From the NCBI RefSeq assembly GCF_022482365.1, contig NZ_JAKVPE010000001.1, positions 2,034,176 to 2,098,175 of the forward strand: a DNA stretch of 64,000 nucleotides, read 5' to 3'. The notes under the pieces are model-generated. The model was not told the DNA's origin and made no database searches. It saw nothing but the letters and a program-made list of their open reading frames with translations. Each line of letters starts with the position of its first letter. Within the stretch, counting starts at the first letter, position 1. The stretch comes from Limosilactobacillus sp. Lineage in GTDB: Bacteria; Bacillota; Bacilli; Lactobacillales; Lactobacillaceae. This document shows positions 22,503 to 55,587 of this stretch, in pieces. Made by a program: the position numbers and the translations under genes.

Positions 22503-23453
22503 TCAATCATCGCTGCTCGTTGTCGACTGGGACGGTGATTGTTCATCGTTGGCTTTCAAATCGCTAATCGGGGTCCAGTGGAGCTGCTTCAAAAGCAGTG
22601 GCTGCTTAAACTTAGTGTCCTGGTCGGCGAAGAGATTGTTTTGGGACAGGGCATCCCGGTTGGTGTTCATCACGTCATTGAGGTATTGATCGGCGAAGTA
22701 GTGAATGGGAACGCCAAGGATGCTGAGCAGGGAAATGACCGGCTCGATGTATTCGTAGGGGTGGGCGATTGTCGTGGCTGACGAGCGACTCTGCGAATCG
22801 AGGTGGACCTCGAACTGGTAGAGGTTGGCGTTGACGAAGGTGATCCGCTTGGCGTTAAAGTAGGGCTTCCACATCGTGTAGACATCGTCAACCACCTGAT
22901 TCTCCGGGAAGCGAACGTGATCAAAGACCCGCGTGCGAAAAAGCTTGACGCAAGGGGTCCAAAAGACCTGCCGGATGTGGGGGAAGAGGTCGCCGAACCA
23001 TTCCTTGGGGGTGTACCAGGGTTTGATTTTCACCTTGTCGATATTCTTGCTGCCAAAGTCGTAGTAGTGATCGTGGTCGGAGTTATAGCCATGAACGTAG
23101 CCGACCGCGATGTCGCTGTTCGTCTCCTGCATTCGCTGGTAGAGGGTGGTCAGGAAAATTGACTCGAACTGGTCATCACCGTCCAGAAAGGTAAACAGGG
23201 ACGTGTCGACCAGGTCCAGGGCGGAGTTGCGGTTGGCGGAGATGCCACGGTGGGGGAAGCGGAAGTATTTAATTCGTTTGTCCCTGGCCGCGTAGAATTT
23301 GCAAATTGCCGGGGACTCGTCCGTCGAGCTGTCGTCCACTAGCAGGAGTCGCCAATTCGTGTAGGTCTGCTTAATCACCGATTCAATGCACTTGGCCAGG
23401 TACTTGGCCTCGTTGTAGAAGGGCACGACAACGGTGATGGTTTCATCATTCAT
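22503..23453 (-). CDS. Family 2 glycosyltransferase
   Basis: The start was moved to MNDETITVVVPFYNE (ATG is the complement of 23451-23453). It has DDSSTD and DGDD motifs. The start overlaps the upstream GT2 stop by 8 nt (ATGAATGA). Confidence 0.85.
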   Translation of the reverse strand: MNDETITVVVPFYNEAKYLAKCIESVIKQTYTNWRLLLVDDSSTDESPAICKFYAARDKRIKYFRFPHRGISANRNSALDLVDTSLFTFLDGDDQFESIFLTTLYQRMQETNSDIAVGYVHGYNSDHDHYYDFGSKNIDKVKIKPWYTPKEWFGDLFPHIRQVFWTPCVKLFRTRVFDHVRFPENQVVDDVYTMWKPYFNAKRITFVNANLYQFEVHLDSQSRSSATTIAHPYEYIEPVISLLSILGVPIHYFADQYLNDVMNTNRDALSQNNLFADQDTKFKQPLLLKQLHWTPISDLKANDEQSPSQSTTSSDD

Positions 23454-24333
23454 CGGCGTCCCCCTCTTCAAGCCGGTCCAGAATGCTCAGCTTCTCGACG
23501 GCATCCTGGTAGGCCCAGAGTTGGTTGCCATCCAGGGCGTGATCCTTGATGAACTGCAGCTGCTGACGGTAGCAATTGGCAATCGCCTGGGTATCGGCAC
23601 CGAGAATGTTCAGAATTGCCAGGGCCGCTTCCAGACCGGTTACGGACAGGTTGAACACCTTCTTTTGCTGGAGACTGCCGGGCCGGTTAATACGGCGGCA
23701 GTACAGTGGGTCCGTCAAGTAGGCGATGCGCTGGGCGTTCAGGTAGAGCTTCCAGACGGTCATATCGTCCGGGAAGTTGTTGTCCGGGAACATGACGCTA
23801 TCGAAGACGGCCCGCCGATAGAGCTTGCCGGTTGAAGTCCGGTGGAGCTGATTGATCCAGTTGGGCTCATAGTCGGCGTACCGGAACCATTCCAGGGGAG
23901 TATGGGTTCCCGCCAGTGAGTTTTCGACCGTCGTGTCATGGTAAAGGGTGGCCTGGCGCGGATCGTCGAACTGGGTGAAGTTGGTAATGGCGATATTCGC
24001 CTGGTCGTCCTCAAGCGCCCGGGTCGTTTGCGCCAGAAAATCTGGGTCGAGGAGATCATCGCCGTGCACGAAGGTAATCAGATCGCCGGTTGCCAGCTGC
24101 AGGCCGAGGTTGTAAGCCGCCCCGAGCCCAGCGTGATGCTGGCTGATGAAGCGAACCCGGTGGTCGGCCAGGGCGTAACGAGCAGCCACCGCCAGCGTGC
24201 CGTCGGTGGACTGGTCATCGACGACGATTACTTCGAGGTTGTGATAGGACTGGTTAAGGATGCTATCGAGGCAGGTTGCCAGGTAGTCCTTGAGGTTATA
24301 TGCGGGAACAATTACAGAAACTTTTTCAGACAT
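23446..24333 (-). CDS. Family 2 glycosyltransferase
   Basis: The start was moved to MSEKVSVIVPAYN (complement of 24331-24333), with RBS AAGGAAGG. It has DDQSTD and HGDD motifs. It is a paralogue of the downstream GT2 and shares its C-terminal region architecture. Confidence 0.85.
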   Translation of the reverse strand: MSEKVSVIVPAYNLKDYLATCLDSILNQSYHNLEVIVVDDQSTDGTLAVAARYALADHRVRFISQHHAGLGAAYNLGLQLATGDLITFVHGDDLLDPDFLAQTTRALEDDQANIAITNFTQFDDPRQATLYHDTTVENSLAGTHTPLEWFRYADYEPNWINQLHRTSTGKLYRRAVFDSVMFPDNNFPDDMTVWKLYLNAQRIAYLTDPLYCRRINRPGSLQQKKVFNLSVTGLEAALAILNILGADTQAIANCYRQQLQFIKDHALDGNQLWAYQDAVEKLSILDRLEEGDADE

Positions 24334-24554
24334 GCGCTTTTCCTTCCTTGCTTGATAAAAACGAGATAATTTATCTGGTGATTTATAAAACGACAATGAA
24401 GCACTATTTGATGACACCCAGGAGTTAATGCTCCCGGCAACAAATTGCCACCTCCCTCACTTTAATTTGATTTTACAACATTTATTAGCAAAATTGCGCT
24501 CAATTATTAAAACACTTATAATTAAATTAAATCTCAACTAGAGGGGGTGGCAAA

Positions 24555-25541
24555 ATGGCGTTTTATATCACACAGATATACGGTGGTGGCAGCCGGGATG
24601 ACCAGCTGCAGGCCCGCGTCGCGCAGGCGGCCGCGTCCATTGGGATTTCGACAATCGGCATTCGTCAGTGTCAGCAGGAGCGGCTTGCAACTGAGCTGTT
24701 AGCTGCTCTGCGACCACTCAGTGCGGGGGATGGGCTGATTGTGCAGCTGCCGCTGGCGAGCGATCAGGTTGTCGGCGAGACTCTGCTGGCCGTCCTCGAC
24801 AGCCTTGACAAAGACCAAGCGAGTATCCCCCTGGTGCTTTTCCTGCACCGGTTGCTGTTTAGCCGGCCGGGCCTGCTGGAACAAAGTCGTGCCTTGCTTA
24901 AGCGCTCGAATGCCGTGATTGTCCCTGACTCGCCGGCTGGCAGACGCGTGGCCCAGCTGGACGTAACTGACCGGCCAGTCATCACTTGCCAGCTCCTGGA
25001 TGCCGTCAGCAACTTGAGCTTTTCCCAGCTTCCGACATTTAGTCGGCACCTCAACGTCTGTGATCCACCGACGCCAGCGGCCCTTAATTCTTGGGCAGTT
25101 GCCGCAGTGCCAGAGCATGTTTACAATGCGGGCTTTGCGGTTGATAACCCGGCTTGCATTGACCGGGGACAGGCGGAGAACGACGCCCTTATCCTTGCCC
25201 TGCATCAGGAGGGTGGCTTTGGCCTGCTGCTGGATGACGATGCCTTGCAAATGAATCTGGGGAGTTTTGTTGCCGCTAGCTTGCCCCTGGTGGTTGCCAA
25301 ATCAAATCCCCAGTCGGCCTGGGTTTACCGCTATGGCCTGGGTCACGTTGTTGAATCGCCTGCTGGTGCCGCCCGGTGCATTCGGCAAACGCCGGCGGCC
25401 ATTTACGAGGCGATGGCCCGTCGCGTTGAGCAGTTTGGTCGATTGAGCCGCCGGGGTTATTTCCTACGGCGCGCCCTGCTTGAGGGGGAATACCGGGCAC
25501 TATTAGATGGACAAGGCCTTGCGAAGGGGGCGGAGCAATGA
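24555..25541 (+). CDS. Divergent Gtf3/GtfC (Nss)-like protein, possibly non-catalytic
   Basis: 328 aa, collinear with the next ORF. Shared blocks are MxxxIT at the N-terminus, GDGLIVQLPL vs GDVVIIQSPLW, EGGFGLLL vs LGGYGLLW, LGSFVAASLPLVV vs LGAYLSAGLPVIA, and GYFLRRALLE vs GLFSKRVLTA. The conserved FVHDVEPLEF block is replaced by FLHRLLFS. The protein is rich in Ala, Leu and Arg. Confidence 0.6.
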   Translation: MAFYITQIYGGGSRDDQLQARVAQAAASIGISTIGIRQCQQERLATELLAALRPLSAGDGLIVQLPLASDQVVGETLLAVLDSLDKDQASIPLVLFLHRLLFSRPGLLEQSRALLKRSNAVIVPDSPAGRRVAQLDVTDRPVITCQLLDAVSNLSFSQLPTFSRHLNVCDPPTPAALNSWAVAAVPEHVYNAGFAVDNPACIDRGQAENDALILALHQEGGFGLLLDDDALQMNLGSFVAASLPLVVAKSNPQSAWVYRYGLGHVVESPAGAARCIRQTPAAIYEAMARRVEQFGRLSRRGYFLRRALLEGEYRALLDGQGLAKGAEQ

Positions 25542-26551
25542 CCGTTTGGATAACGAGCATGAAGGGGATGGCGGGAGCAGCCCAATTGGGTCAAGATCTT
25601 GAAGCGCAGGTTGGCCGTGAGCTTGGCTTTCGTGAGCTGAGCTTCCCGGTGAGCTTTGAAGACGTTAAGGCCGATGGTCAGGAAGAGCTCCGGTCAATAT
25701 CCGCCAAGGTCCACGCTGGGGACGTGGTGATTATTCAGTCCCCGCTGTGGTTTCAATTTGCGTTTGAACAGTCCTTGGTTCGCCTTTTGAAAAAGCAAGG
25801 GGTTAGAATCGTCTATTTTGTCCACGACGTCGAGCCACTTGAATTTGGCGCGACCGAGCAAAAGGAGCTGACAACCTGGATTCATCTTTATAATCAGGCG
25901 ACCGTAATGATTTTGCCCAACCGCCACACGGCAAAATGCCTCCGCGGTTATGGGCTGATCATTCCGTCAAGCCAGATTGTTTACCAGGAGGTTTGGGACA
26001 ACCGGGTTGAGTTTGACCGGCTGGACCAACCAATTAGCAAGTACACGCCGATTATCCAGTTCGCCGGTGACCGGGACAAGTTCGATTTTATCGATACCTG
26101 GCCGAGCGCTGAGGTGCCCCTGGTGAACTATTCCCGGACGCGGGTTCGGAGCAAGAATGTTTTTAACGGCAATTTTTTGCCCAACGATATTCTAGTGCTG
26201 AAGATGCATAACCTTGGGGGCTACGGCCTTTTGTGGGAAGCCGACGAGCGCTGGTATAACTACATGAAAATCAACACCTCCTTCAAGTTGGGGGCCTACC
26301 TCAGCGCAGGGTTGCCGGTGATCGCGCATCGAGGAGTTGCGCAGGAAAAACTGATCACCCGTGAACACCTGGGCATCGTGGCGGATTCAATTAGCGATGC
26401 GATTGATCAGGTGATGAAATTGCCGCCGCAGCAGTACTTCCGTTTAGCCCAAAACGCCTGGCGCTTAGGGCGGCTGACGCGTCAGGGACTCTTTTCAAAG
26501 CGGGTCCTCACCGCAGCTGTTTTCCGTGCGCTGGCACCGTGGACAGTCTGA
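25538..26551 (+). CDS. gtfC: Accessory Sec system glycosyltransferase, Gtf3/GtfC (Nss) family
   Basis: 337 aa. Its block pattern (GDVVIIQSPLW, FVHDVEPLEF, GGYGLLW, FKLGAYLSAGLPVI, GLFSKRVLTAAVF) matches what I recall of streptococcal Gtf3. It has an ATGA overlap with the upstream paralogue. Confidence 0.75.
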   Translation: MTVWITSMKGMAGAAQLGQDLEAQVGRELGFRELSFPVSFEDVKADGQEELRSISAKVHAGDVVIIQSPLWFQFAFEQSLVRLLKKQGVRIVYFVHDVEPLEFGATEQKELTTWIHLYNQATVMILPNRHTAKCLRGYGLIIPSSQIVYQEVWDNRVEFDRLDQPISKYTPIIQFAGDRDKFDFIDTWPSAEVPLVNYSRTRVRSKNVFNGNFLPNDILVLKMHNLGGYGLLWEADERWYNYMKINTSFKLGAYLSAGLPVIAHRGVAQEKLITREHLGIVADSISDAIDQVMKLPPQQYFRLAQNAWRLGRLTRQGLFSKRVLTAAVFRALAPWTV

Positions 26552-26661
26552 CAAGTCATGGGATTAGTGTCAAAAACATTTAGAAAAGTGTACGCTGGCT
26601 ACGGAAAATAGGATACAATGTTATTAAGAATAGAAAATAATTTATATTTGGGGTGAGGGGT

Positions 26662-27878
26662 ATGAAAAAAATAATAGTACTTTCGACCGACATGACCTTT
26701 CTCATGCCAGCGGAAACGCTGATCAAGTCCATCGCTTGTCACAATGACAATGTTAAAATCTACGTCCTGAACGAGGACCTTCCACAAGAATGGTTTGCCA
26801 ATATTAATCGGCGTCTGCACTTCTTGGACATCCAGGTCGTTGACGTGAAGTACGACCCGACGCTCCTGGACAACGTGGTGGTCTCCAATCAGTTCCTTAC
26901 CAAGATGACGTTCGGTCGTTTTCTGATCCCCAAGCTCATCCCAGAAGACGGGTCATCTACATGGATGTCGACATGGTTGTCGACGGGTCCCTGGACGGAC
27001 TCTATCAGTACCCGCTCCATGGTCACACCCTTGGTGCCGTCCTGACCCCGATGGATCCGAACGTCTTTAACGCGGGCCTTTTACTGATAGATAATACCCG
27101 ATTGCGGGCCACTAACTTCACGGCTGAAATGCTGGAGAAGGGAACGGTTAGCCACAAGAAGGACGACCAGTCAATTCTCAACGAGGTCTTCAAGGACGAC
27201 TTCGAAAAATTACCCGGGAAATATAATGTCCAAATCGGTGACGACCTTTCCGTGGTCTACAATAACGAATACGACCGTTTCTCGAAGAACCTAGAGGAGT
27301 CGCGCCCCTTTACGATCATTCATTACACGGGGGTCAACAAGCCCTGGTGGCTGATGAGCGCAATGCGGCTCCGTGAAAAGTGGTGGGAATACCGTAACCT
27401 TGATTATCCCGAACTCATCGCTCAGCGGCGGGTAGCGATGCTCAGAAAGCAGGCCACCCAGCGCCCGCAGTTTTTCACCTTTACCTATACCCAGGATCTC
27501 AGTCAATTGGAAGCACTGGTGAAGGCCTTTCCAGACTGTGACTTCAATATTGCCGCCCCGACAATGGTGGGCCCGGTCCTGCAGGTGATGCTGCGCTACC
27601 CGAACGTGAGAATCCACGAGCAGGTTAACAAGTACATCTTAAAGGAAAACATCGACAAGACGACGATTTACCTGGACATCAATGCACAGCCGCGCGATAA
27701 ACAAAACATGGAGATCATGCAAGAAATGCTCAATCGCCAGGTGCCGATCCTGACCTTTGCCGATGTCAAGACGGATATGCTTGAGAGCGAACCGGACTAC
27801 ACGGTTATTCCGGCGGGGGACGTTGATAAGATGGTCGCTACCATTCGACAGCTTTTGGCGGCCAGACCAAATGATTAG
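26662..27878 (+). pseudogene. Family 8 glycosyltransferase (Gly-like), interrupted by a 1-nt frameshift near 26949-26951
   Basis: ORF 26653..27045 reads ...FGRFLIPKLIPED and then goes out of frame. The next frame continues RVIYMDVDMVVDGSLDGLY (GT8 DxD motif) ...FNAGLLLIDN...HYTGVNKPWW through 27878. The gacgggtc context implies one missing nucleotide. Confidence 0.75.
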
Positions 27879-27886
27879 CTTCGATC

Positions 27887-27918
27887 AAAAGAGGCGGGGG
27901 ACAACCCAGCCTCTTTTT
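27887..27918 (+). terminator. Rho-independent terminator after the GT8 gene
   Basis: Stem AAAAGAGGC/GCCTCTTTT with a T-run. Confidence 0.7.
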
Positions 27919-28153
27919 AACTATCAATCGATAAGAAAAAAACTGCAAATGGCCATTTTCCAGAGCAAAGTATGGAAGGGCGACTGTGATTGCAATGCAA
28001 TAAATTAACCGCGCACGGCGGGCAAAAATGTTCATGAATGTTTCGATAATACTGAATTATAAGAATATAAGTGCTAAAATGAATTTGTTTATAAGCTTAA
28101 AAGTTTTTAACGGTTTAAGCTGAATGAAAATTGATGTTGGGGGAGAATAAGCA

Positions 28154-29347
28154 ATGAAAAAGCCCTATCAACTAAATATTCTCCGCGACCGCGTGGCCTT
28201 CAGCCTCTTTGTGCTGCTGATATATATCTTGGGAAGCAGTATTCCCCTGCCCTTTGTCCGGATGACGGAAATGTACCGGAACATGCTGGCTAAGACCCCA
28301 ATCGGCCTGATGAGTTTCATGGGCGGGGCCAACTTGCAGACGCTCTCGCTGTTTTCCGTGGGACTGAACCCGTTGATGATCGCGATGATGATTGTCCAGC
28401 TGATGTCGATGACCAAGCTCTTCTGGACCGATTCGCTCTCCCAGCACCAGACGATGATCGTGCAGCAGTGGCTGATGCTGATCCTGGCGACCGTGCAGGC
28501 GATTGCGATCACCCTGACCTTCCATTTGACCGCCAACTATCGGCAGGCGACCGCGGTGGTGATCATCCTGGTGGCCGGCAGTATGTTGGTGGTTTGGCTG
28601 GGCTTCATGAACATGCAGTTTGGCATCGGGGGAACGATGACCCTGATCCTGTTCAACATGATTTCCGGTTCAATCCAGCCGCTGGTGCGCTCGATCAAAC
28701 GAATGCAGGTCATTCCACACGCTGAGGTCTGGCTGGCGATGCTGATTCTGGTTGGCCTGGTGGAGATTATCTTCTGGGTTGGCTTCAACCGGGCCTACTA
28801 CCGGGCCTCGATGATTGACGTCACCCTCAAGAGTTCGGTGAAACCGCTGGCCTTTCCAATCGCACTTAACCTCGGTGGGATGATGACCTACATGATGGGG
28901 ATGGCCATCCTGACTTTGCCAATGATCCTGGCCCAGACGACGAGTTGGCGGGAAAAGATCAACGATTGGCACTTTCAGGTCGTCTTCTGTATGGTAGTTA
29001 CTTTTCTGTTGTTCTACTTCTTTGCCTATCTGCAGCTCAACCCTAAGGACCAGGCAAAGGAACTGCGAAACAAGAACAACTATATCCTCGACGTCCGGCC
29101 CGGGAAGCCGACGTCCCGCTTTATTCGCAATCACCTGCTATGGCTCAGTCTGCCCGGCGCCCTGCTCAACGGTGCCCAGCTGACCCTCGGCCTGGTGGGT
29201 TCGCAATTCTTGGGGCGGTACACGGCCTTTGCGCTGATTCCGCTGGACGTGGTGATGATCGTGATGTTCATGAACCTGATTAAGGACCAGCTTCTGGTAC
29301 TGGTGATTCCGCATCGCTACGAGAAATTGATGAAAAAAGAGGGGTAG
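28154..29347 (+). CDS. secY2: Accessory Sec system translocase SecY2
   Basis: 397 aa with about 10 TM segments and a SecY-like N-terminus (LFVLLIYILGSSIPLPFV). It is followed by asp1-asp2-asp3-secA2 in the canonical order. Confidence 0.85.
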   Translation: MKKPYQLNILRDRVAFSLFVLLIYILGSSIPLPFVRMTEMYRNMLAKTPIGLMSFMGGANLQTLSLFSVGLNPLMIAMMIVQLMSMTKLFWTDSLSQHQTMIVQQWLMLILATVQAIAITLTFHLTANYRQATAVVIILVAGSMLVVWLGFMNMQFGIGGTMTLILFNMISGSIQPLVRSIKRMQVIPHAEVWLAMLILVGLVEIIFWVGFNRAYYRASMIDVTLKSSVKPLAFPIALNLGGMMTYMMGMAILTLPMILAQTTSWREKINDWHFQVVFCMVVTFLLFYFFAYLQLNPKDQAKELRNKNNYILDVRPGKPTSRFIRNHLLWLSLPGALLNGAQLTLGLVGSQFLGRYTAFALIPLDVVMIVMFMNLIKDQLLVLVIPHRYEKLMKKEG

Positions 29348-29350
29348 AGC

Positions 29351-30871
29351 ATGGATTACATGGTGCCAGCATGGCATGAGTTATTTATTGATTGGGCATA
29401 CAACGTTCCACACCTTGATTTTGATGACGCGACGGGCCAACTCCGGCTGCTTCAGGATAACAAGCAGCCAGTGGGCCTTTTTCTGCTTAATTACCAGCCC
29501 AATTTATTGGAGCGCCTGGGGCAGATGGCCCTGAGCCCGAATTCCATTTTGTCGGTATTTGACTACATTCAAGACGTCCATCACCAGGAGGGGCAGAGCC
29601 TGAGCTACAAGGACTTTGCATGGCCAGCTGGAGCCTACCTCAAGTTTTCCTCCTTCCACATTCAGGTAATAGTCAACAAGAAGATGTACGCCCAGGTGAT
29701 CTTTAGCGTGTCCGGTCGAATCATCCTGGTGCAATATTACGACGAAAATGAGCAGCTAACTAAGCAGCTGCGCATCGATAGCCGGGGCTTCATTTCACGG
29801 GAGGAAGACTTCCGCGGCGACAAGGAGACCCAGCACATTTACTTTGACGAGCAGGGTAACTGGCGGATCAACCATAACCTGGAAAGCGATCAGGTAATCG
29901 TCAACCCGATGTTCAAGGACCAGTTTGCCCACGGCGAGTACGACCACCTGGATGAGCTGATCAGGGAGGTGGCCTTAACCGACCTGATGCCGCAGGTTTA
30001 TAAGGACGGCGGGCGCATGGTCATCGCATTGGATGACAAAATGCCAGTGGCCCCGGACCTCTTTAGCACCGTGCCGACGGTCTACTCAATCAGCCAGTGG
30101 CACCCGTGCAAGAAGATCTTAGCCGGCCTGCAAAATCCAGATCTGGTAACAATGGTGGCGGACCGTGAGAAGACGGCCGAGAGCGTTCAGGAGCTTCTCC
30201 ACCTCGATAAGCCAGTCACCACCATTCCGATCTTTTATTCTCAGTTTCGGCTGGGGCACAGTCAGCGGATCGCGCAGCAGCGGATCGCCATTTTTAACGA
30301 AAACATGACGGGCCAGGAGCTGATGGACCTGGTCAATCGGCTCTACAGCCGCCTATTAAAAAACTACAAGAAGGAGCAGCTCCTCTTCCTAAACTACAGC
30401 CAGGAAAAGGAGCTGGAGGCCAAGCAGATTATCAACCAACTGTGTGCCGACCATCCCGGCGAATTCCGGCTGCATAAGGACCATCCTGCCATGATCGAGG
30501 TTGATCTCGAGGGAGCCAAGAAACTGCCGGAGCTCTACCTCAAGTCAGTCCGGCTGCCCAGCGTGGGGGATGCGATGACGGTGCTTGATAAGGTGCGGTT
30601 GATGATCGACCTTGGTGAAGAGCCGGACGAATTCCTGCAGATGGCGTCCGTCAGCACCGGGATTCCCCGTCTGCAGCGCCACGCCACGGAGGAGGTTCAT
30701 GACCATCAAAACGGACTGGTGGTTACCGACAATGACCAGGTGCTGGCGGGGATCAGCTACTACCTGGATCACTTAAAGCACTGGAATGAGGCCCTAGCTA
30801 GTGACGTTCAAATCATGAACACCCACTCCAGCCAGCGGCTCTTCCAAAAATGGCAAGAACTATGGAAGTAA
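29351..30871 (+). CDS. asp1: Accessory Sec system protein Asp1
   Basis: 506 aa. Its N-terminus MDYMVPAWHE resembles the conserved Asp1 start (M.YFIPAWY). Its position is directly after secY2. Confidence 0.75.
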   Translation: MDYMVPAWHELFIDWAYNVPHLDFDDATGQLRLLQDNKQPVGLFLLNYQPNLLERLGQMALSPNSILSVFDYIQDVHHQEGQSLSYKDFAWPAGAYLKFSSFHIQVIVNKKMYAQVIFSVSGRIILVQYYDENEQLTKQLRIDSRGFISREEDFRGDKETQHIYFDEQGNWRINHNLESDQVIVNPMFKDQFAHGEYDHLDELIREVALTDLMPQVYKDGGRMVIALDDKMPVAPDLFSTVPTVYSISQWHPCKKILAGLQNPDLVTMVADREKTAESVQELLHLDKPVTTIPIFYSQFRLGHSQRIAQQRIAIFNENMTGQELMDLVNRLYSRLLKNYKKEQLLFLNYSQEKELEAKQIINQLCADHPGEFRLHKDHPAMIEVDLEGAKKLPELYLKSVRLPSVGDAMTVLDKVRLMIDLGEEPDEFLQMASVSTGIPRLQRHATEEVHDHQNGLVVTDNDQVLAGISYYLDHLKHWNEALASDVQIMNTHSSQRLFQKWQELWK

Positions 30872-30883
30872 GGTGAGAAGACG

Positions 30884-32392
30884 ATGGCAACCAACGTTTT
30901 ACAATTGGGCGGCCGTGATGATTGGTCGGAAAAGTACAAGATGTCCGATGAGATTACCTGGAACTATAATAATTTTCCGCCCAAGAAGCCGGCAATCTAC
31001 TCGGTCGTAATCATTGACGGGGCGGTTAACCTGACACCAAAAAACTGGGAAAAATTGATTTGGGCTTCCACCCCCTATGCGGTCTTCTACCGTCCCGGAA
31101 CGGAAAAGCAACTGGGAGCGGCCGGTCAGCGCTTCATCAAGCTGGATGCCGGCAAGCCATTCACCTGCTCACCGGAACAGATGATTAAGGACATCTCGGA
31201 CAAGTACTACTTCGGCCAGACCGGGATCCGGGTCTTGCCCAACAACATCAACCTCAACCAGGAGCTGTTTGACGAACTGAACTACCCGGACGGCGGTCAC
31301 CTGCAGCTGAGCGTGGATAGTGACGAATGGCAGACCTTTGGCCACTACCGCAACCAGCTCTATGTTGACCCCTACCGGCGGCTGCGGATCTGGCTGGAGG
31401 CGAGCCGGGAGCCCGGCGTCGAGCTCCGAATCGTGGTCAATGAACTGGTTGTTGGCGATCGTCAGTGGACCTTTCCGGTGACGACTAAGGACGCTGAGGA
31501 AATCATTCCCACCAAGCTGCAAACGGAGGGCCAGTTCGTCAGCGTCAGCCTGCAGATGCGGGGACACGGCAAGTTTACCCTAGGGCCTTTCCACTACAGT
31601 TGGGCACGATACGGGGCCGGTATCTTTATCGTCGGCGCCAAGCGGCTGATCGAGCCGCACAACGGCGAGCAGGTGGCCTACTACCTTAATCCCGGCAACC
31701 TCAAGCCGCCATTAAACGTCTACTTTTCCGGTGCCCGGAGTGCCGAGGGTTTTGAAGCCTACCCACTTTTTCGGAGCTTCAAGGCGCCGAGCCTGCTCTT
31801 TACGGATCCGCGGCTCGAAATCGGCCAGTTCTACACCGGTGACTACATGGAGCCGGCCATCAAGCGGGTCATCATGCGTTCCCTGCTCAAGCTCGGGATG
31901 ACCACTGACGACCTGGTTATGTGCGGAGTGTCAATGGGGACTTACCCGGCCATCAAGCTCGGCAGCGAATTAGGAGCACACGCCATCGTGGTAGCCAAGG
32001 CGCTGACCAACCTCGGCTACCTGGCCGAGCGGGGAAGGCTGCAGCGGCCAGACGAATTCGAGACCATCTTCGATATCGACCGGCAGCTAACCCAGACGGA
32101 CTTTCCGAAAGGCCTCCACGAGATTGACCAAAAGTTCTGGCGCCAGTTCGATGAGGACAACCTGGCCCGGACCCGGCTCTTTATCACCCACATGTACCAG
32201 GATGACTACGATGACCGGGCGGTTGCCAAGATTAAATCCTCAAACGCCATCCAGCACGTCAAGGAGTTTGCCACCAAGGGCTATCCCGGCCACCACAACG
32301 ACAACACCGATGGCACGGTTAGCTGGATGATCTACCGGATCCGTCAGGTGATGCGTGATGACTTTGGCAATTACCAGGAGGATGATCAATAA
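30884..32392 (+). CDS. asp2: Accessory Sec system protein Asp2 (esterase/acetyltransferase-type GxSxG)
   Basis: 502 aa. The C-terminal alpha/beta-hydrolase-like region has the nucleophile motif GVSMGT. Its position is between asp1 and asp3. Confidence 0.75.
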   Translation: MATNVLQLGGRDDWSEKYKMSDEITWNYNNFPPKKPAIYSVVIIDGAVNLTPKNWEKLIWASTPYAVFYRPGTEKQLGAAGQRFIKLDAGKPFTCSPEQMIKDISDKYYFGQTGIRVLPNNINLNQELFDELNYPDGGHLQLSVDSDEWQTFGHYRNQLYVDPYRRLRIWLEASREPGVELRIVVNELVVGDRQWTFPVTTKDAEEIIPTKLQTEGQFVSVSLQMRGHGKFTLGPFHYSWARYGAGIFIVGAKRLIEPHNGEQVAYYLNPGNLKPPLNVYFSGARSAEGFEAYPLFRSFKAPSLLFTDPRLEIGQFYTGDYMEPAIKRVIMRSLLKLGMTTDDLVMCGVSMGTYPAIKLGSELGAHAIVVAKALTNLGYLAERGRLQRPDEFETIFDIDRQLTQTDFPKGLHEIDQKFWRQFDEDNLARTRLFITHMYQDDYDDRAVAKIKSSNAIQHVKEFATKGYPGHHNDNTDGTVSWMIYRIRQVMRDDFGNYQEDDQ

Positions 32393-33297
32393 TGAAGCAA
32401 AACATTATTAACCAAATCTACTGGGGCCCCGGATATCAGGATGGCTATCACTTTGGCTCCCGGATTAAGATCCGAAAAAATGGCCACGTCAGCTTTGACA
32501 ATAAGCTAATGGCGTCCGGAAAGATCATCATGTCCTGGCAGTCGAAGCTTAACTACCAGTTTTCCAAAATGGTGCCCCAGCTCCCGGTACTTGCCGTTGG
32601 TCGGCGGTATCGGCTCTACCTCAAGGGACAGGAAAAACCGGCCGGGACGATGATTACCCGACTGATCTTTCGCAACATTCAGGGGGACGAGATTAAGCAG
32701 CTTAACCTGGAGGGCCACGACAACGAGTTTGTCTTTCCTGAAGGGACGGTGGATTACGAGCTGCAACTGATTAACGCTGGCTGCACCCACCTGGAGTTTG
32801 ACCGGATTGAAATCTGCACGGCCGACCTGCCCAAGGACGTCCACGATGATCTCTGGCTGCAAGACCCAATTACCGACTACCCGGACAAACCGGTCCACCT
32901 GCTGGTAATGTCGGCGGGGAAGCGGGCCAAACGTGACTTTCCGTGGCTCAAGCGCTTGGCGGGTGACCTGGCAGTGCAGATCATGCTGGTTTCCTGGCAG
33001 CACCGTGACGACGTCGGTCAGGACATTACCGATCTGCTGAAGGAAAACCGGGCCTACAACACCCACATTATTTCCTGTGAGCCGCGCTTTGATCGGGCGG
33101 TCATCGATGCCTGCAACTCGTTTCCGGCCTTCCAGGGGTTGGTAACCAACCGCGCCTACTTGGCGGATCGGCCACAGAACATTTACCGTTACGTTTGGCG
33201 GCCGAACGTGCACCAGCTGAAGGAAGCCGTCTCGGAACCGGACTGGGTCAGCCTGTTTTCGGTTATTCATGCCATCTGGGGAGGTGATCAAGGATGA
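32392..33297 (+). CDS. asp3: Accessory Sec system protein Asp3 with a C-terminal extension of about 150 aa
   Basis: 301 aa. It overlaps the asp2 stop by 1 nt and the secA2 start by 4 nt (ATGA). Its size and position suggest the N-terminal half is the Asp3 module. The C-terminal half (from about VHLLVMSAGKRAKRDF) has no family I recognise. Confidence 0.6.
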   Translation: MKQNIINQIYWGPGYQDGYHFGSRIKIRKNGHVSFDNKLMASGKIIMSWQSKLNYQFSKMVPQLPVLAVGRRYRLYLKGQEKPAGTMITRLIFRNIQGDEIKQLNLEGHDNEFVFPEGTVDYELQLINAGCTHLEFDRIEICTADLPKDVHDDLWLQDPITDYPDKPVHLLVMSAGKRAKRDFPWLKRLAGDLAVQIMLVSWQHRDDVGQDITDLLKENRAYNTHIISCEPRFDRAVIDACNSFPAFQGLVTNRAYLADRPQNIYRYVWRPNVHQLKEAVSEPDWVSLFSVIHAIWGGDQG

Positions 33298-33869
33298 TTC
33301 TTGATAAAGTTGACCTCCACCATGTCCGGGCGATCCTGGGAAAGGTCAATGCCTGGGCACCCAAGATGCGGAAGATGTCAGATGCGGAGCTGCGCAACCA
33401 AACCAACCTTTTGCGTGACCAGCTCAAAGGCGGCAAGACCGTCGACGACGTGCTTCCGCAGGCCTTCGCCACGATTCGGGAAGCCGATTACCGGATTCTG
33501 GGAATGTTTCCCTACGACGTTCAGGTAATGGGCGCAATTATCCTCAACCAGGGCTACATTGCCGAGATGAAGACCGGGGAGGGGAAGACCCTGATGGCGA
33601 CCATGGCGATCTACTTAAACGCCCTGGAAGGCAAGGGCTCGATGCTGGTGACGCCAAACGGCTACCTGGCATCCCGGGATGAGGCCCAGCTGGCCCCGGT
33701 CTACGAATGGCTGGGGATGACGGTGAGCCTCGGTTTCGACGAGAAGATCAAGCACCCGAAGCCGGCCCTGAAACGCAAGTGGTACAACGCGGACATCACC
33801 TATACCACCGCCAGTACCCTGGCCTTTGACTACCTGTTCAACAACCTGGCGGATAGCCTGGAGGGCTAG
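33294..33869 (+). pseudogene. secA2: secA2 remnant: only the N-terminal 191 codons of the accessory Sec ATPase
   Basis: The sequence MILDKVDLHHVRAILGKVN...[24 protein letters not shown] (Walker A)...TASTLAFDYLFNNLADSLEG stops at a TAG. Full-length SecA proteins such as the 787-aa SecA at 11313 continue for about 600 more residues. No frame downstream continues the homology. Confidence 0.8.
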
Positions 33870-33960
33870 TTAAACAAGGTCTCTTCTATCGAATGATTTA
33901 TCAAATATCAGAAACTCAACCGGACAAAATGGCAATTGCGTGAAAGCGCTAAAATTTGGT

Positions 33961-33970
33961 GGGGGGGGGG
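33961..33970. repeat. G10 homopolymer tract
   Basis: Ten consecutive G residues in an AT-rich intergenic region, 206 nt upstream of the adhesin TTG start. Confidence 0.95.
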
Positions 33971-34101
33971 TAGAAAGCCACCCCTAAGCGAGTTTGTTTT
34001 ATAAAATTTTATGTAAAAAATATAATTTAAAATATAAAACTTTAAATTAAAAATTGTTTATATCATTGTGAAACAATGTTCGGGTTTGGCCATGCTAGCT
34101 C

Positions 34102-34130
34102 TTGCTCAATGCGGTTTTGCTCAATAAAAT
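34102..34130 (+). promoter_or_regulatory. Putative sigma-A promoter of the adhesin gene
   Basis: TTGCTC (34102-34107), 17-nt spacer, TAAAAT (34125-34130), preceded by a very AT-rich tract. Confidence 0.4.
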
Positions 34131-34175
34131 ATGATAATTGTAAAACGAATTATCATTGATAAAGGAGCAAGAACA

Positions 34176-36338
34176 TTGGAAAAGATTGACGAAATAAAAC
34201 ATTATAAGTTGTACAAAGCCGGTAAATTGTGGCTTACCATGGCGATTGCGACGTTCTCACTCGGGGTAATGGTTTCGTCAGTCAACGCTGACCAAGTAAG
34301 TGCTAATAGTAGTGCAAGTGCTGTTAGTGAACGGGTTGTATCGAGCAGTGCCGCTGTAAATTCGTCCGCAGCCGTTCCAGCAACTTCTGCTGGATCAAAG
34401 AGCACAACACAACAAAGTCTAGCACCCGACCAGCCAGGTGCTTCACAGGCCACTACTAGTGCACAATCAGCAGCTAAGGTTGACAGTTCAGCTGCTAAAT
34501 CATCCGCTAACCAAGCTACTAAAGATAATACGAAGGCTAACAGCAGTACGAAAAAGGAAGCAGCCCTTCCAGCACTGCCTGACTTGGATAACAATCTGTT
34601 GTCCAAGGCCGGATCATTCCATATTTTTGCAAATGAGGTTCAAATTGGCGCTGATGTTAACGGTAACATTGCCACCCAGCATTACATCAGCGGTAACGAA
34701 TTTGGAACACGAAATGAGTCTCACAACTACACCAAGGGAGACGTTTACTACATTGAAACTGTTGACCAAATGGGTTCCAACGCCTTTCGAAACAGTGAAA
34801 ACTATGTTGTCTTTGGCGAAGACACAAAAGTTGAAATAAAAAATGGTCAGGTTTTTGTAAATGGGACCCGAATGGATCACCTGAAGGCTAGTGCTGTTTA
34901 TAAGAAGAGTGGCTACATTGATTTTCAAAAAGAATTCGACAACCTGACATCTCTGGCCAATTATTATGCACGGCAGAAACAGACTGATGGTGTGAAGGTC
35001 AACTTTGAGAATAACAATAATAATTATATTGATGTAAGTAATGTTGCTGCTGGTACAAAGATTATCTACGTTACTGTGCCGACTGGTTGTTTGACATCCT
35101 CCCAGCCACTGACTATCAAGGGGTTAAGTTCTTCAGAAGACGGTCCTGTTGTGGTTATGAATGTCAATGGTTCCGTTAATTTTAATACTCAAACAAAGCT
35201 GGAGTATGATGATGGCCAAACCATTTCTCCAAATGAAGGACATAGTAAGCCAAACCATGTGCTTTGGAACTTTGGTGCTAATGGTGGAACGTTAAATATT
35301 AACAGTGGCTATCTTTTAGGCAGTGTTCTGAATCCTCAGGGTGAAGTAAACGCAAACGTTAACGTCGATGGAAATTTGATTGCCAACCGGGTTAACATTA
35401 GCGGTGGTGAATCTCACCGTTGGGACCTCCGGGGTGGAACGTATGTAGATATCCACCAACCAAGTACACCAAGCCAGAGCAGTCAAGTAACACAGCCAAG
35501 TCAAACTAGTCAAACGACGCAGCCAACACAGCCAAGTCAAACCAGTCAAACGACGCAGCCAACACAGCCGAGTCAGACTAGTCAAACGACGCAGCCAACG
35601 CAGCCGAGTCAAACTAGTCAAACGACGCAGCCAACACAGCCGAGTCAGACTAGTCAAACGACGCAGCCAACACAGCCGAGTCAGACTAGTCAAACGACGC
35701 AGCCAACACAGCCAAGTCAAACTAGTCAAACGACGCAGCCAACGCAGCCAAGTCAAACCAGTCAAACGACGCAGCCAACGCAGCCGAGTCAGACTAGTCA
35801 AACGACGCAGCCAACACAGCCGAGTCAAACTAGTCAAACGACGCAGCCAACACAGCCGAGTCAGACTAGTCAAACGACGCAGCCAACACAGCCGAGTCAG
35901 ACTAGTCAAACGACGCAGCCAACACAGCCAAGTCAAACCAGTCAAACGACGCAGTCAACGTCACCTGCTTACCCGGTAATCCCAGATAATCCGAAGTCAA
36001 GCACGCCAACGCAACCAAACCAGACGCAGCCGACCTCAATTCAGTCGACGACTCCTGCTCAATCACAGCAGCCGACTGAACCAGCAACGTCTGAAACGAA
36101 CCAGCCAACCCAACCGGTTCACCAAACTGACCAGCAGCAACCAAGCTCACCAGTTGAGACCCAAGCGGTGAAGACCACTCCTGCCCAGTCACAGCAAGCA
36201 CAAAGTCAGTCTGCTACCGCTACTGCTGCTGGACTGCCACAGACCGGTAACCAGAACGAAACTGCAGTAACCGTTCTTGGCCTCCTTACCGCCAGTTTCG
36301 GAATGCTTTTCGGCCTGAAGAAGCGTCATTTTGAATAA
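34176..36338 (+). CDS. LPXTG-anchored surface adhesin with a KxYKxGKxW signal peptide and SRRP-like modular layout
   Basis: TTG start at 34176, 8 nt after AAAGGAG. The signal region is KHYKLYKAGKLW...VNA/DQVSA. It is followed by about 100 aa rich in Ser and Ala. A non-repeat region of about 300 aa then follows (IFANEVQIGADVNGNIATQHY, possibly beta-solenoid or choice-of-anchor-A-like). Next come 13 copies of QPSQTSQTTQPT and a Q/P/S/T-rich stalk. The C-terminus is LPQTG plus a hydrophobic segment plus KKRHFE. Confidence 0.85.
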   Translation: MEKIDEIKHYKLYKAGKLWLTMAIATFSLGVMVSSVNADQVSANSSASAVSERVVSSSAAVNSSAAVPATSAGSKSTTQQSLAPDQPGASQATTSAQSAAKVDSSAAKSSANQATKDNTKANSSTKKEAALPALPDLDNNLLSKAGSFHIFANEVQIGADVNGNIATQHYISGNEFGTRNESHNYTKGDVYYIETVDQMGSNAFRNSENYVVFGEDTKVEIKNGQVFVNGTRMDHLKASAVYKKSGYIDFQKEFDNLTSLANYYARQKQTDGVKVNFENNNNNYIDVSNVAAGTKIIYVTVPTGCLTSSQPLTIKGLSSSEDGPVVVMNVNGSVNFNTQTKLEYDDGQTISPNEGHSKPNHVLWNFGANGGTLNINSGYLLGSVLNPQGEVNANVNVDGNLIANRVNISGGESHRWDLRGGTYVDIHQPSTPSQSSQVTQPSQTSQTTQPTQPSQTSQTTQPTQPSQTSQTTQPTQPSQTSQTTQPTQPSQTSQTTQPTQPSQTSQTTQPTQPSQTSQTTQPTQPSQTSQTTQPTQPSQTSQTTQPTQPSQTSQTTQPTQPSQTSQTTQPTQPSQTSQTTQPTQPSQTSQTTQSTSPAYPVIPDNPKSSTPTQPNQTQPTSIQSTTPAQSQQPTEPATSETNQPTQPVHQTDQQQPSSPVETQAVKTTPAQSQQAQSQSATATAAGLPQTGNQNETAVTVLGLLTASFGMLFGLKKRHFE
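35493..35960 (+). repeat. Coding tandem repeat, 13 x 36 bp (QPSQTSQTTQPT)
   Basis: 468 bp is exactly 13 units of cagccaagtcaaactagtcaaacgacgcagccaaca. Units differ only at synonymous positions (ccaagt/ccgagt, caaact/caaacc/cagact, ccaaca/ccaacg). The last unit is degenerate (QST). Confidence 0.95.
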
Positions 36339-36356
36339 TTTTAGCTAGCCCGAAAA

Positions 36357-36383
36357 AGTCGCAATTACCGTTGCGGCTTTTTC
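36357..36383 (+). terminator. Rho-independent terminator after the adhesin gene
   Basis: Stem AGTCGCAA/TTGCGGCT (one G-U pair) followed by T5. Confidence 0.75.
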
Positions 36384-36454
36384 CTTTTCCGGTGTGCCAA
36401 TCAATAGACGAATGCATGTTTGGGTGATAAACTAAATTGTAATTAAATAAAAGG

Positions 36455-36614
36455 CTGGGAATTAACCCGGCCTTTTTGCTGTCGTATAGTTAAAAATGCT
36501 ACAGCGCGGTAGCTGGCTGGATCCTGAACGTTGATAAATCAACGCCCAGGACGCTTAGCCAGCCTCGCGGGGGTGGGAAGACGAACTCGCAAGCGAGTTC
36601 TGTCCCACCGCCTT
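36455..36614 (+). repeat. Structured intergenic repeat element, copy A (candidate ncRNA or REP-like element)
   Basis: 160 nt, 146/160 identical by hand alignment with no indels to 55588-55747 in the same orientation. Four hairpins are predicted. See findings. Confidence 0.85.
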
Positions 36615-36647
36615 GCTTGTATACGGAAAAATAAGGGGGATTTGTCA

Positions 36648-38690
36648 TTGATTTATCGACAACCTGATCGAAAATTTGACCTTGTTTCTGACTATCAGCC
36701 GACCGGTGATCAGCCGGAAGCCATCGCCCAGCTCACCAAGGGAATCCAGGATGGCGAGAAGGCCCAGATCCTGTTGGGGGCAACCGGGACCGGGAAGACC
36801 TTCACGATTTCCAACGTGATCGCCAACGTCAACAAGCCGACGCTGATCCTCTCCCATAACAAGACCCTGGCCGGCCAGCTCTACGGCGAAATGAAGAAGT
36901 TCTTCCCGAACAACGCGGTCGAATATTTCGTTTCCTATTATGACTATTACCAGCCGGAAGCCTACGTGCCGTCTAGCGATACCTACATTGAAAAGGACGC
37001 TTCAATCAACGACGAGATCGATAAGCTGCGGAACGCCGCCACCACGGCATTGCTGGAACGCAACGACGTGATCGTGGTCGCCTCGGTTTCCAGCATCTTC
37101 GGCCTGGGGAATCCGAACGAATACCAGAACAGCGTGATTTCCCTCCATGTCGGCCAACAGATCGAGCGCGACTACCTTCTGCGCCAGCTGGTGACGATCC
37201 AGTATGACCGCAACGACATTGACTTCCAGCGGGGCCGCTTCCGGGTTCACGGCGACGTGGTCGAGATTTTCCCGGCTTCACACGGTGAGACGGCGCTGCG
37301 GATTGAATTCTTCGGTGACGAGATCGACCGGATCCGGGAGGTCGACGCGTTGACGGGGGAGGTCAAGGGCGACCGCCAGGAGGTTTCGATCTTCCCGGCA
37401 ACTCACTTTATGACCAACGAGGACATCATGGACCTGGCCCTGCCGGAAATTGAGGCCGACATGAAAAAGCAGGTCAAGAAGTTCACTGACGAGGGCAAGC
37501 TGCTGGAGGCGGAACGAATTCAGCAGCGGACGACCTTTGACATCGAGATGATGCGCGAGGTCGGCTACGTCAACGGGATTGAAAACTATTCTCGCTACAT
37601 GGATCGGCGCAAACCGGGGGAGCCGCCGTACACCCTGCTGGACTTCTTCCCAAAGGACTTCCTGCTGGTGGTCGACGAGTCCCACCAGACAATGCCTCAG
37701 GTACGGGGGATGTACAACGGTGACCGCGCCCGCAAGCAGATGCTGATCGACTACGGTTTCCGGCTGCCGAGCGCCCTCGACAACCGGCCGCTGAAGCTCA
37801 AGGAGTTTGAACAGCACGTCAACCAGGTCGTTTACATGTCCGCCACGCCGGGCCCGTACGAAATGGAACAGACCGATCACGTCGTCCAACAGATCATTCG
37901 GCCAACCGGCCTGCTTGACCCGACAATTGAGGTGCGGCCGGTAATGGGCCAGATCGATGACCTGGTCGGTGAGATTAACAAGCGGATCGAGCGTCACGAG
38001 CGGGTCTTCGTGACGACACTGACCAAGAAGATGTCCGAGGACCTGACCGACTATCTGAAGGACCTCGGGCTGAAGGTGAAGTACCTCCACTCCGACATCA
38101 AGACCCTGGAGCGGACCCAGATCATCCGGGACCTGCGCTTAGGCAAGTTCGACGTCCTGGTCGGGATCAACCTCCTGCGGGAGGGTCTGGACGTGCCAGA
38201 GGTCTCCCTGGTGGCCATTCTCGATGCCGACAAGGAAGGCTTCCTGCGTAACGAGCGCTCGCTGATCCAGACGATTGGTCGGGCCGCCCGGAACGAACAC
38301 GGGGCAGTCATCATGTACGCCGACACGGTCACGGAATCGATGCAAAAGGCGATCGACGAGACCAAGCGGCGGCGGGCCATCCAGATGAAGTACAACCAGG
38401 ATCACGGGATTACCCCGAAGACGATCATCAAGCCGATCCAGGAGGCGATCACGGCCACTACCAAGACGGAGGATACTGGCGAACAAGAGGACGCAAGCGA
38501 GTTTACGACCAAGGACTTCGCCAAGCTGTCGAAGAGTGCTCAACAGAACATGATCGACGAGCTGACCGAGCAGATGCAGGCGGCGGCCAAGCGGCTTGAT
38601 TTCGAACAGGCGGCCACGCTACGTGATACTGTCATGGAGCTCAAGGCCCAGATGAGCGGCAAAAAGACGAAAAAAGTTGGCAATAAATAG
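36648..38690 (+). CDS. uvrB: Excinuclease ABC subunit B
   Basis: The start was moved to the TTG at 36648 (RBS AAGGGGGA 7 nt upstream), giving (M)[25 protein letters not shown], which matches the UvrB N-terminus. It has Walker [10 protein letters not shown] and a C-terminal UVR domain. The longer track ORF from 36531 would translate the repeat element. Confidence 0.95.
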
Positions 38691-45914: not shown

Positions 45915-45952
45915 AAAAAACAGCAACGACCGGGAATTGCCGATCGCTGCTG
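45915..45952 (-). terminator. Rho-independent terminator after the 38-aa ORF
   Basis: The minus-strand RNA forms a 13-bp stem, CAGCAGCGATCGG/CCGGTCGTTGCTG (two G-U pairs that exist only on the minus-strand transcript), followed by T6. Confidence 0.7.
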
Positions 45953-45985: not shown

Positions 45986-46102
45986 TTACTTTTCGTTCAG
46001 GTTTTCGGCGAGCATGTCCAGCTCAGCGGCAGCGCTCTGCTGGTCCAGTTCCTTCCAATCTGCAGCGGTCTTGAATACGTTTAATTTACTAGTGTCTTCC
46101 AT
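45986..46102 (-). CDS. Small acidic hypothetical protein (38 aa)
   Basis: MEDTSKLNVFKTAADWKELDQQSAAAELDMLAENLNEK. AGGAGG lies 8 nt upstream of the ATG and its own terminator lies downstream. It falls below the 60-aa ORF-track cutoff. Confidence 0.5.
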   Translation of the reverse strand: MEDTSKLNVFKTAADWKELDQQSAAAELDMLAENLNEK

Positions 46103-48761: not shown

Positions 48762-48833
48762 TGCGCCCCCCGGGAGTCGAACCCGGATCTCGAGAACCGG
48801 AATCTCACGTGCGATCCATTACACTAAGGGCGC
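48762..48833 (-). tRNA. tRNA-Arg (anticodon CCG)
   Basis: The reverse complement GCGCCCTTAGTGTAATGGATCGCACGTGAGATTCCGGTTCTCGAGATCCGGGTTCGACTCCCGGGGGGCGCA folds as a cloverleaf. It has a 7-bp acceptor stem, a GTGT/GCAC D stem, anticodon loop TTCCGGT and T arm CCGGG-TTCGACT-CCCGG. CCA is not encoded. Confidence 0.9.
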
Positions 48834-55577: not shown

Positions 55578-55587
55578 GTGAAGGAGA

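Follow-up and report, generated by a model that had tools for sequence, protein, structure and literature searches.

A structured interspersed repeat of Limosilactobacillus that appears to replace the stem-loops of intrinsic terminators

Results

Two copies of the element in the window

The window analyzed in this study is a 64-kb stretch of the genome of a Limosilactobacillus sp., and all coordinates given without a locus number are window positions. It carries two copies of a non-coding element on the + strand. Copy A (36453-36612) is located inside the 5'-untranslated region (5'UTR) of uvrB (36648-38690, +), whose TTG start codon lies 35 nt from the end of the copy. Copy B (55586-55745) begins 9 nt past the stop codon of ptsI (55575-55577). 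Both copies are members of a dispersed non-coding repeat family restricted to Limosilactobacillus, and comparison of filled and empty sites suggested that the family enters genomes in the exact place of the stem-loops of intrinsic terminators.

The original prediction, made from the window alone, had described the segment 36455-36614 as recurring at 55588-55747. Alignment confirmed 146 identical positions out of 160 without any indel and with an identical final 59 nt, and the 14 differences fell at the positions implied. BLAST and nhmmer with a profile of the family detected these two copies and no third in the 64-kb window, copy A matching the profile with an E value of 1e-48. The two copies folded far better than shuffled sequences (-85.2 kcal/mol with z = -7.8 and -73.6 kcal/mol with z = -5.4, one value per copy), and the reverse strand also exceeded its shuffles (z = -7.3).

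Copy A, delimited by its alignment with copy B, runs from GGCTGGG to CCCACCGCC and consists of four parts on the + strand. The hairpin H1 (36449-36477) has arms at 36453-36459 and 36466-36472, a loop AATTAA and a following T5 tract; together with four A residues upstream it makes an 11-bp hairpin of the bidirectional-terminator type with a folding energy of -16.9 kcal/mol. An AT-rich linker (CTCTTTACTATTTTAAAG...AATGC, 36473-36504), conserved throughout the family in the alignment of 44 copies, leads to the core (36505-36569), in which RNAalifold and pair counts defined the helices Pa (36505-36509/36565-36569) and Pb (36512-36515/36556-36559) and the hairpin H3 (36521-36552) with the conserved loop uGAUAAAUCa. 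The terminal hairpin H4 (36570-36612; -28.9 kcal/mol) is composed of an outer stem with one bulge (36570-36578/36603-36612), an inner stem GAACTCG/CGAGTTC and a loop CAAG, and the T-tract behind it is degraded (TTGCTTGT). The parts of copy B, located by nhmmer and alignment, are found at the copy A positions plus 19133.

A repeat family restricted to Limosilactobacillus

One genome per species in 185,579 species was scanned with a 23-nt pattern taken from the block of highest conservation (TAGCCANCCTNGCGGNGGTGGGA). The pattern identified 47 loci in at least 13 species, and every match was in Limosilactobacillus. The carriers were L. kribbianus, lineages of L. reuteri, L. oris, L. antri, L. coleohominis, L. 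balticus, L. rudii, L. agrestimuris, L. caecicola and several species known as metagenome-assembled genomes. By this pattern L. kribbianus had 12 copies, UW_DM_LIMLAC4_1 had 8 and the other genomes had 1-4; the copies were dispersed and formed genome-specific subfamilies. A second pattern independent of H4 gave 112 matches in metagenomes, 51 of which were set aside as an unrelated coding gene or chance matches, leaving about 60 more copies. These included a subfamily with a different 3' hairpin, H4', which was invisible to the first pattern, and the copy numbers given by that pattern are thus lower bounds. Profile search across 465 kb of the collected loci (numbered with the prefix L) and their flanks gave no further copies. 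The length of the family copies ranged from 160 to 210 nt. The window copies were closest to those of L. kribbianus, with 85-94% identity, and the window genes flanking them were 84-92% identical to their L. kribbianus counterparts, the host being a related Limosilactobacillus.

BLAST against a plasmid collection gave two matches, both in L. reuteri, and no copies were found in a phage collection or in viral contigs. One of the plasmids (NZ_CP139476.1, locus L001) carries at 2997-3151 a copy that is truncated at its right end and near-identical to those of Limosilactobacillus sp. UW_DM_LIMLAC4_1. A Pycsar defence system and RatA/rli28-type RNAs with a holin-like toxin gene lie at a distance of about 2 kb (5055-5403). 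The repeat also breaks short-read assemblies: six independent Logan contigs carrying the PtsI of the window (L052-L057) end 31-40 nt past the ptsI stop codon, inside H1.

The family was absent from the catalogues consulted, which agreed with the failure of the original prediction to recognize any known RNA. At the gathering threshold, Rfam 15 matched only a tRNA (48762-48833, -) in the window. At E <= 10, the region 36300-36700 gave only weak matches resting on the H1 terminator, and in 18 related loci no Rfam match overlapped the element. No description of it, as a named repeat or small RNA of Limosilactobacillus, came up in literature searches.

Conserved structure and covariation

The structural consensus was derived by RNAalifold from 44 distinct aligned copies, and pair numbers below refer to alignment columns. 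It consists of H1, Pa, Pb, H3 and H4 with an outer and an inner stem. Over H1, Pa, the H3 hairpin and H4, standard pairs occupied 96.6% of the cells. Both sides had changed in 17 of the 42 pairs and in 180 cells. None of 500 shuffles reached the observed pairing and covariation, and partners that had been slid out of register paired in only 39-50% of cells. The covarying pairs partitioned the copies in at least five different ways and therefore reflect several independent events. The claim that the two window copies represent a selected single-strand structure rather than a decaying duplicate was thereby upheld.

The individual helices differed in how far they extend across the family. H1 was paired family-wide with 6 of its 7 pairs covarying and with a conserved U-tract behind it; the H1 of copy B was also scored as terminator-like by the consensus scan. 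Pa pairs the 5' strand CGCRG with YYGCG and shows a perfect switch between A-U and G-C, its fourth pair (112-208) being A-U in 22, G-C in 20 and G-U in 2 copies. Family-wide it takes the place of the helix H2 drawn earlier (GCTAC/GTAGC), which is possible only in copies of the L. kribbianus type; the other proposed hairpins, H1, H3 and H4, were retained. Pb is a short helix of GCUG with UAGC. The 7-bp bottom tier of H3 (GCTGGCT/AGCCAGC) first assigned there proved to be lineage-specific, as three kinds of variants contradicted the 7-bp register and family variants fit only the 4-bp helix. Two main versions of H3 exist, each compensated (GATTCCGAACGTTGA... and CAGTTCAAACGCTGA...), under the fixed loop UGAUAAAUCA, and its individual pairs take two or three compensated forms. 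The double compensation noted at two pairs between copies A and B was confirmed: 36523/36550 changes from C-G to U-A, and 36525/36548 from U-A to C-G. The statement that the differences break no helix holds for this compensation in H3 but not for the extended H1 stem of copy B, which contains an A.C mismatch. In H4 the pairs 213-255, 225-244, 228-241 and 231-239 covary. H4' is strongly covarying as well, for example at ACCGAAAATC/GATTTTCGGT, GGCTAAAATC/GATTTTAGCC and GTCCCAAATC/GATTTGGGAC, and has its own U6 tract.

Terminal inverted repeats had been reported as lacking, which was only partly true, as most family members have complementary termini (GAGRCTGGGA...TCCCACTCYC, about 9 of 10 positions). 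This complementarity arises because H1 and H4 resemble each other, and no insertion sequence (IS) with such ends turned up in the scans. In topological terms the whole element thus amounts to a single large hairpin that would replace a small one.

Several copies departed from the consensus. H3 was deleted, with H1 and H4 kept, in two long-retained copies, one at the atpC site of four L. reuteri lineages and the other in L029, a locus of Ca. L. merdipullorum; this pattern fits host selection acting on the terminal hairpins only. A 22-23-nt insert (..AGGCTAGCTTCGCGTCG), seen solely inside element copies, can pair with the 5' strand of Pa/Pb and resembles a second complement to it, better than the first. 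It was located at L010 2510-2531, at L044 4691-4705 and, after GCGGAGGT, in L120, L130, L155 and L163. At one orthologous site it was present in L010 and absent from L061; it occupied two different positions among the copies, and once, in L044, it was the exact reverse complement on the opposite arm. An 'ancestral' form with the 22-nt insert on both arms had no match in the metagenomes. At L048 5805-5854 the loop TAAA is inverted to TTTA and a C-to-T change perfects the H3 stem. Both changes are absent from three orthologous L. reuteri copies and have the look of a quasi-palindrome template-switch mutation. One further orthologous site holds different subtypes in two species (L018 and L036).

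Strand and genomic context

The original prediction had considered the pairing valid only if the + strand is transcribed. This was not borne out, as G.U pairs of the + strand at three conserved positions are offset by A.C mismatches in H3. The structure, itself derived from the + strand, contains 184 G.U cells versus 26 A.C cells on that strand. The A.C mismatches occur at pairs 144-165 (23 copies), 145-164 (13 copies) and 146-163 (16 copies), and all three become G.U on the minus strand. The alifold energy of the core was -40.8 kcal/mol on the minus strand versus -34.9 kcal/mol on the plus strand, and the mean minimum free energy was -61.8 versus -58.6 kcal/mol. The strand cannot be assigned by pairing, wobble or energy. 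A replication-linked orientation was also rejected, with GC skew positive in the element orientation in only 34 of 53 loci.

The copies showed a robust preference for the 3' ends of genes. In the genome and metagenome sets together, 35 copies were in convergent gaps versus 5 in divergent ones, and in the genome set the element usually started 5-50 nt past the stop codon of a co-oriented gene. Among the genes upstream were rpsA, rpsD, gpmA-like, eno, ptsI, atpC, the C-terminal part of adhE, a D-lactate-dehydrogenase-type gene, trxA, nrdH, galE and gcvH. In gaps between tandem genes, the genome set gave about 17 sense versus 3 antisense copies after removal of orthologous duplicates, a bias absent from the metagenome set (11 versus 10). 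A strict sense orientation was thus rejected, and the sense bias is weak at best (28 versus 13 in the combined sets, with redundancy partly controlled). The right flank contained at least four T residues within 6 nt in 24 of 44 copies. The left flanks varied, GAGG being preceded by AAA, GGG, TTT or GGT, among others, and they lacked any conserved tetra- or pentanucleotide. The element was accordingly no longer regarded as an RNA specific to one locus and linked to uvrB or the neighboring adhesin island, as it is dispersed over former terminator positions beside unrelated genes.

Filled and empty sites

In six comparisons of a filled with an empty site, the element stood precisely where the empty site has the stem-loop of an intrinsic terminator, flanked by its A-tract and T-tract. 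Neither a target-site duplication nor a remnant of the old hairpin was found in any of the six. The cleanest pair was between the convergent ltrA and lacS-like genes in the L. reuteri group, with flanks 92% identical. The empty allele (L058-L060) reads ...ttaaaaaa GGAACTGCTCTGATTTGAGCAGTTCC tttttaatc..., and the filled alleles (L061, and L010 with a long form) read ...ttaaaaaa GAGGCTGG...CCCACTCCC ttttaatc.... In a more distant relative (L067) the same site holds a different simple hairpin, bounded by A7 and T6, and since this outgroup lacks the element, the filled state is the derived one.

Two further pairs were L017 versus L013 and L007 versus L028. The window itself provided two empty sites. 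An ordinary terminator hairpin with a U-tract at 45915-45952 (-; -22.5 kcal/mol) corresponds to a filled site in L. kribbianus (L040, 5103-5266), and the ordinary terminator after the enolase gene (AAAGAGCTGTGGC...GCCGCGGCTCTTTTTT, 53712-53747, +; -23 kcal/mol) corresponds to the filled L046 (1735-1912). The sixth comparison was that of a hairpin in the uvrB leader of L029 with copy A. The empty-site hairpins that were folded had energies of -18 to -31 kcal/mol with U-runs behind them, and the hairpins of L007 and L067 were read from the sequence instead. Taken together, the comparisons show what appears to be insertion by replacement of the stem-loop of a resident intrinsic terminator, with inheritance of its A-tract and T-tract. 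Landing in terminator stem-loops would therefore place the element at the 3' ends of genes, above all between convergent ones.

Other observations were made around these sites. The terminator replaced in L040 belongs to a 38-codon open reading frame (ORF) (MEDTSKLNVFKTAADWKELDQQSAAAELDMLAENLNEK; window 45986-46102, -) conserved with L. kribbianus. Ordinary bidirectional terminators of L. reuteri at L009 2141-2172 and L017 1951-1984 have H1-like stems starting with GAGACTGGGAA or GAGACTAGG; they may be a source of H1, its remnants or a coincidence. Solo H1 hairpins were considered as a separate mobile terminator family and were found at two sites only. In L. kribbianus, an identical 121-nt sequence (...AATGTCAATAGCTTAACTTAATGACATT) at positions 1-121 of both L024 and L030 is joined to a truncated copy of the element. 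Both cuts fall at equivalent points of arms that resemble each other: that of H1, at GAGGCT|GGGAA, and the complement of the 3' arm of H4. The 121-nt sequence has the appearance of another repeat or IS that targets the element site-specifically.

Copy A at uvrB and copy B at ptsI

A pattern check identified a uvrB promoter at 36405-36433 (+), composed of TAGACG, a 17-nt spacer and TGaTAAACT, with a LexA (Cheo)-like box CGAATGCATGTTTG at 36409-36422. It is homologous to L029 276-305. In the window this promoter lies upstream of copy A, while the family member of Ca. L. merdipullorum lies upstream of its uvrB promoter and not in the leader. As the two copies are on opposite sides of a homologous promoter, the insertions were independent, and copy A was rejected as an ortholog of the copy near uvrB in Ca. 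L. merdipullorum. Copy A is at the position where L029 has a small terminator-like hairpin in the leader. It is also among the only 3 of 44 copies in which a promoter scan found a sigma-70-like site in H1 or the linker (in copy A, TTAACC at 36462-36467, 17 nt, TATAGT at 36485-36490), and a conserved internal promoter was rejected at this frequency. L030a, also one of the three, is separated by 6 nt from the gene downstream of it. We infer that uvrB is now transcribed through copy A or from within it, and the promoter-like site may drive uvrB.

Copy B is followed by TTTT and flanked by the genes for PtsI and an amino-acid permease, the latter with room for its own promoter. It is proposed to be the 3' terminator region of ptsI.

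The accessory-Sec/adhesin island (22400-36400) lies between the upstream gene ending at 22397 and the uvrB promoter, and has its own terminators at 22430-22470 and 36344-36383. The island is missing from the synteny of L029, where the homologue of the gene ending at 22397 is directly followed by an element copy and then by uvrB. The island is not linked to the element.

Discussion

A probable mobile module in the place of terminators

We consider it probable that the element is a mobile module that replaces terminators while still terminating in both directions, with a core serving its propagation and with copying by template switching or a hairpin-specific enzyme as the favored route. The module would be built from the GC-rich H1 with its U-tract, the AT-rich linker, the core of Pa, Pb and a three-tier H3 with its fixed loop, and a terminal H4, or H4' with U6. 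New copies would swap into the place of the stem-loop of an intrinsic terminator, or occasionally of a terminator-like hairpin in a 5'UTR such as that upstream of uvrB. H1 would then abut the A-tract, and H4 would abut or borrow the T-tract of the replaced terminator. Termination in both directions is therefore predicted at the locus, the complement of H1 followed by that of the A-tract being the predicted terminator on the opposite strand. H1, H4 with the flanking T-tract of 24 of the 44 copies, and H4' have the sequence features of intrinsic terminators. As such a locus could still terminate both ways, the swaps would be tolerated, and might even be useful, at the ends of essential and highly expressed genes. 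The compensatory substitutions would keep the helices because single-stranded folding matters, H1 and H4 being selected as RNA-folding terminators. The core is most likely a cis-acting structure for copying into new sites; its conservation, its position between terminators and the lack of a promoter in 41 of 44 copies suggest that it serves the propagation of the element itself rather than acting as an RNA in trans.

As for the copying step, our guess is that template switching at folded hairpins or a hairpin-specific enzyme would account for it better than a classical transposase. Template switching is made plausible by the presence or absence, changing position and inversion of the insert, by the inverted loop of L048 and by the different subtypes of L018 and L036. 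Hairpin copy-choice of this kind is thus plausible from the sequences, and a dedicated hairpin-binding enzyme or an RNA intermediate is possible. We suggest only tentatively that the family moves in a manner not described so far, a terminator stem-loop swap by way of a hairpin enzyme, transcription- or replication-coupled template switching or an RNA intermediate, with Pa/Pb/H3 as the recognition structure.

Several points weigh against a module of this kind. No enzyme or autonomous partner turned up in our scans, and mobility is deduced from presence and absence and from non-orthologous positions. Most sense transcripts should end at H1, ahead of the core, yet the core is very conserved. The low copy number (1-12 per genome by the first pattern) would also fit an RNA selected by the host. 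The apparent excess of highly expressed upstream genes was judged by eye, with no genome-wide background. A two-step history, in which insertion nearby was followed by loss of the old hairpin, is convincingly excluded only in the case with flanks of 92% identity, and the 3' ends of genes nearly always have a terminator.

Alternative explanations

The core and H4 could instead form a multi-copy small RNA, with its own promoter or processed from a 3'UTR, that acts in trans or binds a protein and is insulated by H1. The strongly conserved unpaired stretches, the fixed loop and the covarying helices of the core would suit such a role, and H4 or H4' with its U-tract resembles the terminator of a small RNA. 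Read-through from the highly expressed genes that many copies follow (rpsA, rpsD, eno, ptsI and atpC) would yield abundant 3'UTR-derived RNA. However, H1 and its conserved U-tract should halt sense transcription ahead of the core, and a sigma-70-like site within H1 or the linker is confined to the three copies mentioned above. Neither the even distribution over sense and antisense tandem gaps in the metagenome set nor the wobble pairs pick out a strand, and H3 is deleted in two long-retained copies. A small RNA is thus unlikely.

We regard as still less likely a conventional non-autonomous transposon with no role in the host, either a MITE (a miniature transposable element with inverted repeats) mobilized by a DDE transposase or an IS200/IS605-type palindrome-associated element mobilized by a Y1 enzyme. 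The dispersed copies, the genome-specific subfamilies, the largely complementary termini and the near-identity of the plasmid copy to those of another species would all be expected of a transposon, and the end hairpins are alike in direct orientation as at the ends of IS200/IS605. In contrast, ordinary DDE transposition is excluded by the absence of a target-site duplication from the clean site pairs. Insertion of the IS200/IS605 type does not fit, as there is no fixed tetra- or pentanucleotide motif 5' of the left end and the target hairpin was lost rather than kept. No longer, ORF-bearing relative was found in any scan. A tblastn search with an IS200 TnpA query, which is weak evidence, had no match in the 465 kb of flanks.

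A cis-regulatory leader for uvrB (a riboswitch, an attenuator or a protein-binding site), with a second copy regulating the gene after ptsI, would suit the highly structured copy A between a LexA-box promoter and the uvrB start, but is very improbable given about 100 copies beside unrelated genes, mostly on the gene 3' side and often between convergent genes, the position of the Ca. L. merdipullorum element upstream of the uvrB promoter and the absence of an Rfam leader or riboswitch match.

Significance

Small repeats of the BOX, SPRITE and bcr types are common in Gram-positive bacteria, and their means of spread are mostly unexplained. The clean filled and empty pairs of terminator replacement provide a testable model of how repeats may colonize the 3' ends of genes without harm. 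If the terminator-swap mode is true, terminators would be a general landing pad, and the swap would offer a mechanism for the spread of SPRITE-like repeats in other Firmicutes. The copies would also supply naturally occurring cassettes for bidirectional termination in Limosilactobacillus reuteri, a probiotic that is being engineered. At uvrB, copy A separates the gene from its SOS promoter and may change its regulation upon DNA damage.

Comparison with known systems

Class C bacterial group II introns choose intrinsic terminators as insertion sites, as the present element appears to do. These introns, ribozymes longer than 600 nt that contain a domain V, insert after the terminator and keep it, whereas the present element had no Rfam intron match. 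The IS200/IS605 elements likewise lack classical terminal inverted repeats and target-site duplications, and the hairpin at the left end of IS200 also functions in transcription termination. They share with the present family similar same-strand hairpins at both ends and the absence of target-site duplication, but their insertion takes place 3' of a fixed tetra- or pentanucleotide and does not disrupt the target, in contrast to the absence of a motif and the removal of the hairpin seen here. Repetitive extragenic palindromes (REP) are found at the 3' ends of genes in hundreds of copies of 20-40 nt, are linked to RAYT and are targeted by other insertion sequences. The GTAG at the foot of a hairpin (GTAG-CTGGCTGG in the present element) and the 121-nt repeat cutting two L. 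kribbianus copies recall REP, while the present element is longer (160-210 nt) and sparser (1-12 copies per genome). No RAYT gene was identified, although no genome-wide search for RAYT was made. An integron attC-like recombination site was also considered, solely because the hairpins are conserved in structure; the genes beside the copies are housekeeping genes.

In the Bacillus cereus group, bcr1 is a lineage-restricted repeat of about 155 nt whose positions differ between strains; it contains two independent stem-loops kept by compensatory changes, is transcribed and is flanked by 5-bp direct repeats (PMC3184786). The present family resembles it in size, lineage restriction, non-conserved positions and compensated stem-loops. 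It differs in having no target-site duplication, and terminator replacement has not been reported for bcr1.

The terminator-like SPRITE of S. pneumoniae is AT-rich, about 105 nt long and present in about 30 copies per genome, with a single 18-bp duplex and a U-rich tract (PMC3049150). It is bounded by AAAA...TTTT, is strongly enriched near the 3' ends of genes and has been proposed to be a co-opted terminator; its authors found no target-site duplication and no empty site for comparison (PMC3049150). As a kind of repeat the present element agrees with SPRITE, being a dispersed repeat of hairpin and U-tract enriched just downstream of coding sequences. It is not a member of the SPRITE family proper, given its different architecture and composition and the lack of any Streptococcus match in the 185,579-species scan. 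The present element is GC-rich, 160-210 nt long and equipped with two terminal hairpins and a multi-helix core, and its empty sites point to replacement. The family described here, previously undescribed, thus belongs among the small structured interspersed repeats and is not a new class of regulatory RNA. SPRITE and bcr1 are its closest known analogues, to both of which it is unrelated in sequence and compared with which it is more elaborate.

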